A stretch of DNA of 64,000 bases from Enterobacter phage CC31, in the sequence record NC_014662.1, one strand, 5' to 3'. Within the stretch, counting starts at the first letter, position 1. Every line of letters begins with the position of its first letter. The translations under genes were made by a program, and so were the position numbers. Of this stretch, positions 24,228 through 63,981 are shown piece after piece. Under the pieces are notes generated by a model. That model saw only the letters and a list, made by a program, of their open reading frames with translations, made no database searches and had not been told where the DNA came from.

Positions 24228-24259
24228 ATATACTAACACATACAACGGAGGATGTAAAC
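24228..24259 (-). promoter_or_regulatory. T4 early-promoter-like element
   Basis: GATGTAAACGG (GTTTAC on minus) plus TATATACTAACAC -10 region. Confidence 0.5.
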
Positions 24260-57064: not shown

Positions 57065-57350
57065 TTAATTGTTCCAAACGTCGTTCGAGTTCTTTAATCA
57101 TTTCGTTGTTCATTGCTTTGTATATATCAAGCAAGAATGGCTTAACACCGCCGTTATAAGGAGTTTCAAACGGACAGATATAATCTTTACCAAGAAGCTT
57201 CTTCATGAAAGGATGCTCTGCCATTCTGAATCCAGGGTCATTTGCATAAGTTCCCCAGTTTTCATCCATCATTTCATTAGCACGTTGCAGAGAAGCAATT
57301 TGAGTTTTGATTAAAATGATGTTGTGACGCAGACATGATAAATCAGACAT
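57039..57350 (-). CDS. hypothetical protein
   Basis: 103-aa ORF. Confidence 0.45.
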   Translation of the reverse strand: MSDLSCLRHNIILIKTQIASLQRANEMMDENWGTYANDPGFRMAEHPFMKKLLGKDYICPFETPYNGGVKPFLLDIYKAMNNEMIKELERRLEQLNENNTQKE

Positions 57351-57733
57351 TAGTATAAATCCTCGGAAAATAATGTATCAGCAGGGCCGCCTTTCTGGCG
57401 GCGAGTATTAATTTGACCAGCATGAGTTGCAATGATTAATGCTTCTTTGCGAGTAAGATAATTTCCCCATTGGTCCAGGAAACCTTGGTCATCACCATAA
57501 ACTTGTTCAGAAACTACCTTATCACGCATTTGGTCTAATACTAGAGCCATGTCTTTTGAATAATGACGAGTCCCTGGAATAACTAACTCTCCGCCATCTT
57601 TCAATTTAAAACGATTAGCTGCACAGACGATAACTCGTTGAAGTAAACGGCCATCCCACCAGTCAGCTTTAATGAAACAGATTTCAGGAATTCGTTCGCC
57701 GATATTCTGAGTTTCGATTAAATCACCATTCAT
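57350..57733 (-). CDS. hypothetical protein
   Basis: 127-aa ORF; ATGA coupling with neighbours. Confidence 0.5.
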   Translation of the reverse strand: MNGDLIETQNIGERIPEICFIKADWWDGRLLQRVIVCAANRFKLKDGGELVIPGTRHYSKDMALVLDQMRDKVVSEQVYGDDQGFLDQWGNYLTRKEALIIATHAGQINTRRQKGGPADTLFSEDLY

Positions 57734-58140
57734 TTGAAGAATCCTTTAATTTTCTGCCACAGAGTTTTTGGTTCACGAATTCCCCAAACACGAAGTTCAG
57801 GTTCTTTAACTACTTCGTTAATCCACTCTTCAACTTCTTCAAGCTCTTTCTTTGCGATGACGACAGAACATGAATCAATGAAGCGAGCCAATGCCTGCAT
57901 GTAAGTTGCACAATCACCACAGTGACGACCTAAAGAACTGTGAACTGCATAACAACCTTTGTATTTACGTTCAATGCTACCAAGATGTGTTCCACGGAAC
58001 CAGACTTCCCATGCTTCGGTTGGTAAGTAGTGTTCATCTGTTACTCGTTCAGCACAACGCTGAAGTTCATTCAAAATCGCTGGACGGTTCATTGACTTTT
58101 TGACGCGGTCGATTTGAGCATTCAGGTTTTTCATGTTCAT
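57730..58140 (-). CDS. hypothetical protein (motA-downstream)
   Basis: 136-aa ORF with several Cys/His (CAERVTDEH, HCGDCATYM). Confidence 0.5.
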   Translation of the reverse strand: MNMKNLNAQIDRVKKSMNRPAILNELQRCAERVTDEHYLPTEAWEVWFRGTHLGSIERKYKGCYAVHSSLGRHCGDCATYMQALARFIDSCSVVIAKKELEEVEEWINEVVKEPELRVWGIREPKTLWQKIKGFFK

Positions 58141-58832: not shown

Positions 58833-58867
58833 AGATAATAGTATCAAACTTTTAAGCCGATGTAAAC
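58833..58867 (-). promoter_or_regulatory. T4 early-promoter-like element upstream of motA
   Basis: CCGATGTAAACGGTTAG motif. Confidence 0.5.
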
Positions 58868-58908
58868 GGTTAGTTTAGCACCTTCCGAAAAAGATGCTAT
58901 CAAACAGC

Positions 58909-59199
58909 TTAGCCTCGGAAGAAGTCCGCGAAGAGCTTCTTGGCTTCGTTCAGAGTTTCTGCTACATCTTCAACTTCAGCGTCAAGCACTGCAACCATAT
59001 CATAGTTGTTGACGTACACCCAGACTAGCACGTAGTTTTCGCTTTCAGTGTTATACCAAATTGTCAGATAACTATTGCTATCAGTGTTTGATGAGTGTAA
59101 ACGGGCTGCATGCATCGTATCATCAAGGTCAACACCTGAGTTAGCCAGTAAAGCATTTAAGTTATTGATTAAAGTTTTCATATTTTCCTCATTTTGCAA
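58909..59199 (-). CDS. hypothetical acidic protein, paralog of adjacent ORF
   Basis: 96 aa; shares Y..Y...SE.Y.L..V.V......A......E...E....EA pattern with ORF 59189..59452. Confidence 0.5.
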   Translation of the reverse strand: MQNEENMKTLINNLNALLANSGVDLDDTMHAARLHSSNTDSNSYLTIWYNTESENYVLVWVYVNNYDMVAVLDAEVEDVAETLNEAKKLFADFFRG

Positions 59200-59452
59200 C
59201 GTAAGCTTCTAAAACTTCTTCAAATGTACCTTCAAGTTCAGGGCATCCCACGAAATCAGCTTCCATCGTTTCCAAATCTACCAGAACTTCAGTTAAAATA
59301 TATTGACTTTCATTGTGGTCATAAACCATAACCCAGTAGCGTGCTTGTGTGTCTTTATCAATTGACATTCTGTTGAATTTAACATAAGCGAAATCAGAAG
59401 TTTCTGTGATAACACCACCATTTTTTAAAGCAGCTACGATAATTGAAATCAT
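59189..59452 (-). CDS. hypothetical acidic protein, paralog of adjacent ORF
   Basis: 87 aa; see paralog. Confidence 0.5.
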   Translation of the reverse strand: MISIIVAALKNGGVITETSDFAYVKFNRMSIDKDTQARYWVMVYDHNESQYILTEVLVDLETMEADFVGCPELEGTFEEVLEAYVAK

Positions 59453-59482
59453 TTTTGTTTTACTCCGTTTGTTTTTGATAGA

Positions 59483-59514
59483 GCTATAATACCATAAGCA
59501 AACGACGATGTAAA
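59483..59514 (-). promoter_or_regulatory. T4 early-promoter-like element
   Basis: GACGATGTAAACGGTTG with GCTATAATACC -10 region. Confidence 0.5.
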
Positions 59515-59639
59515 CGGTTGATTGAAAGAATTTTTAAAGTTAACCAGAACGGTTGAGGGAATGTGGGTAGAAAGGATGATTAATTATATGGACTCGGCTC
59601 TAGAATTCACTAGAGCCGTGTAGAGTGATACAGAAGCTC

Positions 59640-62806: not shown

Positions 62807-63029
62807 AAATTCCTCTGATATGTAGTTCACCAAAATAAATGCGGTCATCTTCTTCAAGATATTCTGCATCAGCAGGAGGGATTTCATTCACCACTTCATC
62901 ACAGTGTAACCAAGCATAATGAACATCTCCTGGATGTTTGACCAGTTTTCTGCAATATACTGATTTTGCATAATGGTCTCCACGAAGATTAACAACAGCT
63001 GAATCACTTACGTTGAATGGATTAATCAT
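62739..63029 (-). CDS. hypothetical protein
   Basis: GAGGA SD before ATG at 63029; overlaps the next ORF by 68 nt. Confidence 0.4.
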   Translation of the reverse strand: MINPFNVSDSAVVNLRGDHYAKSVYCRKLVKHPGDVHYAWLHCDEVVNEIPPADAEYLEEDDRIYFGELHIRGIYGKDESRPVEIESPEDFYPGVQ

Positions 63030-63048
63030 GACAGCTTCCTCAAAAAGA

Positions 63049-63064
63049 AAGGGCCCGAAGGCCC
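63049..63064 (-). terminator. hairpin AGGGCC-CGAA-GGCCCT downstream of rIIB
   Basis: Read directly. Confidence 0.5.
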
Positions 63065-63069
63065 TTAGA

Positions 63070-63981
63070 TTAGATATAACAATCAGTTTCTTGGTTGTAT
63101 TCCGCTTCACGGATTACTTTGTACTGGCAAGTACGCATTTTAGCGTTGTTGTAATCTACCGGGATAGATACTACATCTCGTGGATGTACTTTAACAACTA
63201 CCAGACGGTCATTACCACCGCGGAAGTGTTTGATGTAACTGCGAGCACAAACGTGCAGACCAGCTTCGCAGGTGCGATTTTCATCTTCAACTACATGAGT
63301 ACGAGGCATTTTAACTACTCGACCGATTGAGTTATCGAAGCGACCGGTATAGCAGTCAGTGTAATCGTTACGAATAACTTTCCATGCCAGGAAGTGTCCA
63401 TCTTCAGTGATTTCGATGTCGTTAGCCTGCAGGAAGTCAAACAGACGAGTCACAGCAGTTTTACTTGGGTTTTCCAGCAGATTTTCCAGGAATGGCAGAT
63501 AGAATTCAAAATCTTCACCATTCTGCATATCGTTAATGATACGGTCTACAAGGCCAGATTTGATTTCAATGTCCTGATAGAACAACTGACCATTTTCAAT
63601 GCGAATGTTACCATCAACATAAGAAGTGATTGCCTTCTCAATGTTAATCAGATTAATCGCAGATTCAAAATCACCATCAACACAGAACTGAAGAGCTTCT
63701 TTAAAGTTTGGATGGTCTTTATCAGCAGCGTAAGTATCACGGCCTACTGTGATAGACAGGAACTTAGAAGAACCAGCCCATACAACATCTTCTGGATTGA
63801 AGACTTTAACTGGCGAAGTCACTTTAACTTCCGGTTCAACTTCCGCTTTACGGCTTTTAATTTCATTAACAACACGACGAATAGTATCAACAGAACAAGA
63901 ATAAATTTCTGCTAATTCGGTTTGAGTATAGCCCTGCATGAATTCATCATGAATGGCTACTTTTTCTACATCATTAAACAT
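63070..63981 (-). CDS. rIIB: rIIB membrane-associated protein
   Basis: 303 aa (T4 about 312 aa); N-terminal HTH (YTQTELAEIYSCSVDTIRRVV) and conserved blocks (FEFYLPFLENLLENPSKTAVTRLFDFLQANDIEITEDG, VKVHPRDVVSIPVDYNNAKMRTCQY). Confidence 0.85.
   Translation of the reverse strand: MFNDVEKVAIHDEFMQGYTQTELAEIYSCSVDTIRRVVNEIKSRKAEVEPEVKVTSPVKVFNPEDVVWAGSSKFLSITVGRDTYAADKDHPNFKEALQFCVDGDFESAINLINIEKAITSYVDGNIRIENGQLFYQDIEIKSGLVDRIINDMQNGEDFEFYLPFLENLLENPSKTAVTRLFDFLQANDIEITEDGHFLAWKVIRNDYTDCYTGRFDNSIGRVVKMPRTHVVEDENRTCEAGLHVCARSYIKHFRGGNDRLVVVKVHPRDVVSIPVDYNNAKMRTCQYKVIREAEYNQETDCYI

Follow-up and report, generated by a model that had tools for sequence, protein, structure and literature searches.

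Two small acidic proteins encoded between gene 52 and motA of Enterobacter phage CC31 are very probably old paralogues in a plastic T4-like gene slot

The window examined here is a stretch of 64,000 nucleotides (nt) of Enterobacter phage CC31 (NC_014662.1), a T4-like phage of the genus Karamvirus. On its minus strand, within a block of early genes, two small open reading frames (ORFs) occupy the interval between gene 52, which encodes a topoisomerase subunit, and motA, as a first-pass annotation of this DNA had proposed. We refer to them as A and B. Gene A (58909..59181) encodes 90 amino acids with an isoelectric point (pI) of 4.24 and a net charge of -9, and gene B (59189..59452) encodes 87 amino acids with a pI of 4.21 and a net charge of -10. 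Their products match two GenBank proteins exactly, CC31p269 for A and CC31p270 for B, each labelled hypothetical protein. In the order of the minus strand, gene 52 (61022 to 59640) is followed by B (59452 to 59189), A and motA (58799 to 58155). The spacers measure 187 nt between gene 52 and B, 7 nt between B and A, and 109 nt between A and motA.

The first-pass annotation had given 87 residues for B, which stands, and 96 residues for A, which does not. The longer version of A is a mechanical TTG-to-stop ORF that reaches 59199. On sequence grounds, the better-supported start is the ATG at 59181, which follows a GAGG motif and is used both in GenBank and in phage PG7.

A and B are real genes, and both are under purifying selection. 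Their status as genes is indicated by an excess of synonymous changes, by the presence of a Shine–Dalgarno sequence and an ATG start in each, and by confident AlphaFold2 folds. The nearest genomes to CC31 in the phage collection are Karamvirus isolates of about 94% DNA identity. Between CC31 and PG7, the codon changes comprise 18 synonymous and 3 non-synonymous ones in A, and 17 and 11, respectively, in B; in both genes the differences cluster at third codon positions. The A/B stretch diverges faster between these two phages than the neighbouring motA (8-13% versus 2% nucleotide differences). Both proteins are covered over almost their entire length by PHROG hidden Markov models (HMMs). A matches phrog_16441 (E=1.4e-53, residues 1-89 on positions 1-89 of an 89-position profile) and B matches phrog_18576 (E=1.1e-45, residues 1-87 on positions 1-88 of 88), a profile which is matched by 24/24 members of the B family. 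The second match of B is phrog_17571 (E=4.9e-5).

Sequence signals support the early expression that the first-pass annotation had assumed. The early-promoter-like element which it had credited to one of the two ORFs belongs to B: a promoter scan places an early, sigma-70-type promoter of the T4 kind at 59486..59515 (minus strand), with the sequence GTTTACA-N17-TATTAT and a TG preceding the -10 element. The general form GTTTACW-N17-TAYWAT occurs nine times in the window, without exception on the minus strand, where chance would give 0.03 occurrences. The next early promoter, GTTTACA-N17-TACTAT at 58838..58867 (minus strand), serves motA and not gene A, and delimits the B-A unit on its downstream side. 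The Shine–Dalgarno sequence of A, GAGG (59187..59190, minus strand), lies 5 nt before the ATG and overlaps the TGA stop codon of B (59189..59191), which suggests that translation of A is coupled to that of B. Since A lacks a promoter of its own and its GAGG sits on the B stop codon, the pair is probably a single early bicistronic unit with translational coupling. The junction of the two genes, AATGAGGAAA(A/T)TATG, is kept in PG7 and in phage Moon, and phage EnA02 has AATAGGTGAATTATG instead. Neither a late promoter (TATAAATA) nor a MotA-box middle promoter was detected near the A/B pair.

The relationship between A and B, described at first pass as tandem paralogy with a shared aromatic/acidic pattern, is supported mainly by profile comparison. 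The family alignments comprised 14 sequences for A and 18, later 24, for B. With hhalign the two profiles align collinearly over 78-79 of about 88 columns, with a probability of 90-91% and an E value of 1.2e-6 to 1.6e-6. The alignment pairs YLTIWYNTESENYVLVWVYV with YWVMVYDHNESQYILTEVLV, which is the register drawn at first pass; the pattern is real, but too weak for pairwise BLASTP. Identity between A and B within the profile alignment is about 21-23%, and a Smith-Waterman shuffle test of the two sequences gave p ~0.007. Controls place the profile score well above background. The B alignment was shuffled by columns and by blocks, 200 times each, and the best score was 22, compared with 36.6 for the real pair; reversed alignments scored 23-25 while spanning just 17-18 columns. 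When the B profile was compared with 216 ORFs of the window, A was the sole outlier (score 29.7 over 77 columns, runner-up 19.8), and no score exceeded 17.6 for 145 small ORFs taken from the initial 85 kb of PG7. No further paralogue was found in the CC31 window or in these 85 kb of PG7.

Furthermore, an intermediate sequence joins the two families. A matches P0038, a divergent member of the B family, by BLASTP (E=2e-6, 29% identity over 69 residues). The assignment of P0038 to the B family is supported by a database-wide tblastn search in which it matches the B-type genes of FBB1, CGG4-1 and PG7. The gene adjoining P0038 encodes an unrelated secreted repeat protein.

Predicted structures are in line with this relationship. 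The AlphaFold2 model of A (mean predicted local distance difference test score, pLDDT, of 92) has the order H-E-E-E-E-H, and that of B (mean pLDDT 79) has the order H-E-E-E-E-(E)-H, with a short extra strand. Both consist of an N-terminal helix, an antiparallel meander sheet of 4-5 strands and a C-terminal helix, so that the two models have the same fold. Structure prediction, proposed at first pass as a check, thus agrees with paralogy in secondary-structure order and also in reciprocal Foldseek matches of the predicted models. In the viral structure library BFVD, model A finds its best matches beyond family A in the B proteins of PG7 and Moon (template modelling (TM) scores of 0.71-0.79, E ~2e-4). 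Conversely, the best cross-family match of model B is the A protein of phage CF1 (TM 0.72, E=6.5e-4). The residues common to both families form the aromatic/hydrophobic core of strands 2 and 3, where homology would place the tyrosines Y38 and Y50 of A on Y39 and Y51 of B.

Three uncharacterised phage proteins are matched by both models in BFVD: A0A7D7ISB3 (121 amino acids), A0A385IJ06 from Acinetobacter phage KARL-1 (117 amino acids) and A0A2S1GM08 from Erwinia phage Cronus (96 amino acids), with query-normalised TM scores of 0.56-0.80. The predicted fold family may extend beyond the enterobacterial genera reached by sequence search. A more distant resemblance is seen to cystatin-like and NTF2-like alpha+beta folds, including small anti-CRISPR proteins (5zc1, 7jta_B, 7eni_C), at low Z scores and 6-15% identity to A and B. 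This resemblance is at fold level only and, unlike these folds, A and B carry an extra C-terminal helix. The QxVxG hairpin motif of cystatins is absent from A and B by inspection, and neither qualifies as a member of the cystatin superfamily.

Several results weigh against homology. Pairwise BLASTP of A against B finds no significant similarity (E=2.9); of the alignments proposed at first pass as a check, the pairwise one is therefore not significant, whereas the profile alignment is significant over nearly the full length. A search with the A profile against the single B sequence is weak (hmmsearch E=0.52), and PHROGs keeps A (16441) and B (18576) as separate families. When the B profile was run exhaustively against 1.8 billion representatives with HMMER, the output comprised 11 phage-type clusters of proteins of about 84-92 amino acids and lacked family A. 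In addition, the narrow A profile matches a plus-strand ORF (62974..63327, core 63166..63255) antisense to a rIIB-like gene (63070..63981, minus strand), with 17 bits and E=1e-4 among 484 ORFs in hmmsearch and a score of 33 over 30 columns in hhalign. This ORF carries RYYISWMYFNNYQTVITTAEVFDV, which resembles the strand 3-4 region of A, NYVLVWVYVNNYDMVAVLDAEVEDV. DNA identity is 54% over 90 nt; the match is probably due to chance and the ORF was set aside. Because such a spurious-looking match can arise, E values obtained with narrow family profiles call for caution, and sequence statistics alone are not decisive.

These observations can be accommodated if A and B are unrelated small beta-rich proteins which converged on a helix-meander-helix fold and a similar beta-hairpin pattern. 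Convergence would explain the failure of BLASTP, the separation in PHROGs and the absence of family A from the exhaustive search; the comparable 30-column match to the antisense ORF illustrates that false positives occur at this level, and the shared fold is a simple one. However, it fits poorly with a full-length collinear alignment which scores far above the shuffled controls, with P0038 as a sequence intermediate, and with cross-family Foldseek matches which are reciprocally best across the whole viral structure library. It also leaves unaccounted for that the two genes are adjacent, co-oriented, equal in length and equally acidic. We give convergence little probability and consider, on the combined evidence of sequence and predicted structure, that A and B are very probably homologous.

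The two proteins are best described as old, functionally diverged paralogues. The first-pass annotation had called them duplicated, which holds in the sense of homologous copies. A recent duplication does not agree with an identity of only about 21-23%, with the differing invariant motifs of the two families, or with their independent occurrence across phages. The invariant polar motifs are an LHSSNTDSNSY loop and an NNYD turn in A, and AALxN and ADFxG in B, which points to distinct binding surfaces on one common scaffold. Coordination of zinc by the cysteines of Moon-type B proteins was considered and dropped, as these cysteines are not conserved.

Two long proteins also matched the B HMM, P0040 (840 amino acids) and P0041 (1370 amino acids). 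Both are tandem-repeat proteins, and the matches were judged spurious since the repeats, with 10-11 matched stretches in each protein, inflate their significance. One stretch of P0040, YVIGAVYDSIEDHYNIVSVTM, resembles the strand 2-3 hairpin of B. The P0040 gene (L020 4001..12689) extends over 8.7 kb of a 126-kb contig from an NCBI assembly.

Across phage records, A and B occur together in 24, A alone in 14, and B alone in 4, to which 6 weak Gaprivervirus matches can be added. Given that each gene is found without the other, an obligate A-B heterodimer is unlikely. Among the records with A alone are isolates whose reported hosts are Klebsiella, Erwinia and Aeromonas. A is restricted to Karamvirus and Moonvirus, where it always precedes motA and follows either B or the place from which B is missing. 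In Moonvirus, Gelderlandvirus, Roskildevirus and metagenomic T4-like phages, a B-type gene directly precedes motA. A scan of IMG/VR returned only phages already found otherwise. As far as these sequence searches reach, the family is confined to T4-like (Tevenvirinae) phages.

The Gaprivervirus-type proteins of phrog_17571, which are uncharacterised likewise, are distant relatives of B that can still be recognised as members of its family. They have 91 amino acids (for example P0029 of Escherichia phage P479), and 21/24 members of the B family match this PHROG with full-length alignments. They differ from B in that their gene follows denB instead of preceding motA and in that they are less acidic (net charge -6).

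Within the slot, A is better conserved than B. Identity in the A family ranges from 62 to 97%, and B turns over. Between CC31 and Moon, the upstream hairpin, the promoter and the A-motA spacer are nearly invariant, whereas B retains only 34% amino-acid identity. In phage myPSH1140 (around 2582..2620 of L002, compared with 59179..59470 of the window), B is gone precisely from its own ribosome-binding site (ACGGAG) to that of A, and this deletion leaves A directly behind the early promoter. In the Karamvirus EnA02, the B allele (L007 2001..2261) is 68% identical to Moon B (L003 2001..2264) and 40% identical to CC31 B, and its first residues, MISVIVAAL, are CC31-like. Such a mosaic suggests that one allele replaced another through recombination in the gene itself and in its conserved flanks.

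In T4, the interval between gene 52 and motA holds only motA.1 (Pfam Phage_T4_Y16H), which encodes a hydrophobic membrane peptide of 49 amino acids unrelated to A and B. No motA.1-like ORF is present in the CC31 slot, and Moon and metagenomic loci carry motA.1 and B together. On two metagenomic T4-like contigs (L014 and L015, 2284..2934), a gene of 216 amino acids with a weak SprT-like match separates motA.1 from the B homologue, which again indicates that insertions can enter the slot. In the simplest history, B would be the ancestral occupant and A an extra copy in Karamvirus and Moonvirus, either duplicated in their common ancestor or acquired there as a distant copy.

The regulatory elements around the slot resemble, in part, those of known cassettes. 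ORFan cassettes flanked by promoter-early stem-loops (PeSLs) have been described in the hyperplastic regions of T4-type phages, where they undergo modular shuffling (Arbiol et al. 2010, PMC2839356; Comeau et al. 2014, PMC4122927). The promoter consensus of T4/PST PeSLs is TTTACW-N17-TAYWAT (PMC4122927), and the B-A promoter fits it. In the described subclasses the stem-loop lies within or next to the promoter (PMC2839356). CC31 does not occur in the main text of the 2014 paper (PMC4122927; 0 occurrences). In CC31, a perfect 9-bp stem-loop, CGGCUCUAG-UGAAUU-CUAGAGCCG, is located just past the stop codon of gene 52 (59595..59618, minus strand) and is not followed by a U-tract. Its RNA folding energy is -18.2 kcal/mol (z=-2.9), and the 8-bp core, GGCUCUAG/CUAGAGCC, does not vary among CC31, PG7, myPSH1140, EnA02 and Moon. 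We interpret this element as a putative PeSL-type attenuator or boundary element.

Like the ORFs of PeSL cassettes, A and B are small, presumably non-essential early ORFs preceded by a strong sigma-70-type early promoter, with a conserved stem-loop farther upstream. Gene content varies among the relatives of CC31 by deletion and replacement while the flanking regulatory DNA is conserved. Two features depart from this picture: some 80 nt lie between the CC31 hairpin and the -35 element downstream of it, and the junction of the B deletion in myPSH1140 falls at ribosome-binding sites and not at two PeSLs. Overall, the pattern seen in the sequences matches modular shuffling, and the slot would be recombination-prone and bounded by conserved stem-loop and early-promoter elements. 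At the downstream side, a weak stem-loop in the interval between the A stop codon and the motA promoter (58876..58899, minus strand; -11.5 kcal/mol, z=-1.1) is nearly invariant in sequence across five aligned phages, and it may mark the cassette boundary, although the evidence for this is weak.

The products of both genes are small and acidic, as the first-pass annotation had pointed out. They are about 10 kDa each, and acidity is a family-wide property, with net charges from -14 to -1 over the two families and a few weakly acidic members in B. Neither a signal peptide nor a hydrophobic or transmembrane segment was found in A or B. The maximum Kyte-Doolittle hydropathy over 19 residues, KD(19), is 1.03 for A and 1.11 for B, compared with 2.89 for the motA.1-like membrane peptide of Moon. 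Both proteins are predicted to be soluble, cytoplasmic, compact alpha/beta domains.

Database comparisons are silent about function. Scans of A and B against Pfam, NCBIfam and PADLOC gave no match, with none in PADLOC-DB at E values up to 1, and the 24 B-family members had no match in Pfam either. The PADLOC result excludes little, as this resource holds host defence proteins and not phage counter-defence proteins. A sequence search of the PDB with both profiles was equally negative, and literature searches on CC31p269/270, on the PHROG identifiers and on early or anti-defence genes of Karamvirus yielded nothing relevant.

From these properties we derive a tentative model. B and A would be made in the first minutes of infection from one bicistronic message, transcribed from the early promoter by the host sigma-70 polymerase, with A translated by coupling to B. 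Each protein would then bind a host or host-defence protein stoichiometrically and act as a dispensable inhibitor in takeover or counter-defence. A and B would hit different targets, as their shared conserved aromatic core combined with differing invariant polar motifs suggests. The proposed role is drawn from small size, acidity, early timing, dispensability and allelic turnover. Such traits are typical of known accessory inhibitors of T4, namely Arn, AsiA and Dmd. We rate this functional part at slightly below an even chance. The account as a whole, in which A and B are old, acidic, soluble paralogues confined to T4-like phages, expressed as an early bicistronic unit from a plastic slot and acting as inhibitor-type binders, stands a little above even.

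A more specific possibility is that A and B are DNA mimics like Arn of T4, Ocr of T7 and Ugi of PBS2. Their acidic surface would then imitate the phosphate backbone and sequester a DNA-binding protein of the host, for example an enzyme of restriction or repair or a nucleoid protein. A net charge of -9 or -10 in about 90 residues at a pI of 4.2, the acidity kept in both families and the early expression signals would all suit a mimic, and in T4 the gene for the acidic mimic Arn follows motA at a distance of a few genes. Arn, an anti-restriction protein of 92 amino acids, is moreover close to A and B in size (about 90 residues) and belongs to the same early gene block. However, no relationship of A or B to a known mimic of the Arn, Ocr or Ugi type was found in sequence or structure, and we regard DNA mimicry as improbable.

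Close behind is a role inside the phage, in which A and B would modulate processes linked to their neighbours instead of acting on the host; they might, for example, adjust the gp39/52/60 topoisomerase or the middle transcription that depends on MotA. In at least five T4-like lineages motA is directly preceded by a B-type gene, and some co-transcription of A and motA is plausible since no canonical or strong terminator was found between them. Gene order is broadly conserved in T4-like phages anyway, and T4 itself has MotA and gp52 without A or B. Many Karamvirus and Moonvirus isolates without B keep motA and gene 52, and the Gaprivervirus homologue follows denB. The chances of such a modulator are low. 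Lastly, the immunity-like role suggested at first pass, understood as superinfection exclusion or immunity at the cell envelope in the manner of T4 Imm/Sp, has in its favour a general analogy with small early T4 genes and is highly improbable for two compact, predicted soluble domains without signal peptide or hydrophobic segment (maximum KD(19) of 1.0-1.1).

A and B are small accessory early genes in a plastic T4-like slot; they are of a familiar kind and do not represent a new system or mechanism. With their comparison, PHROG families which had been separated by automated clustering are now linked, and a plastic slot beside motA with conserved regulatory flanks is documented. If the proposed inhibitor role is correct, the slot constitutes a natural experiment, in which one fold was duplicated and re-targeted and B was lost or swapped among close relatives. 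It would also offer a convenient start for finding new targets of host takeover or counter-defence in Enterobacter and Citrobacter, hosts for which therapeutic T4-like phages are under development. A bolder extension would unite phrog_16441, phrog_18576 and phrog_17571 in a new superfamily of small acidic early helix-meander-helix inhibitors, to which structural relatives from T4-like phages of Acinetobacter and Erwinia would be added, with each paralogue neutralising a different host or defence factor of Enterobacter, Citrobacter or Salmonella. We consider this rather unlikely; were it true, the presence or absence of B and the swapping of its alleles would be the record of an ongoing arms race.

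Downstream of motA (57350..58140 of the window, minus strand; L003 3305..4255), homologues of the T4 arn.3/arn block are encoded. In Moon, the annotations in this region read 'arn.3-like' and 'inhibitor of MrcBC restriction'. The A/B pair thus heads a run of small early genes which includes a known anti-restriction function.

Further sites related to the B-A promoter are spread over the window. The extended motif AACCGTTTACATC is found at nine positions, including the B-A promoter, where 0.05 would be expected. A motif scan locates them at 24251, 25241, 32305, 41597, 42215, 55876, 58859, 59507 and 62233, all on the minus strand. Together these nine sites map the early transcription units over the window, and possibly sites of recombination as well.
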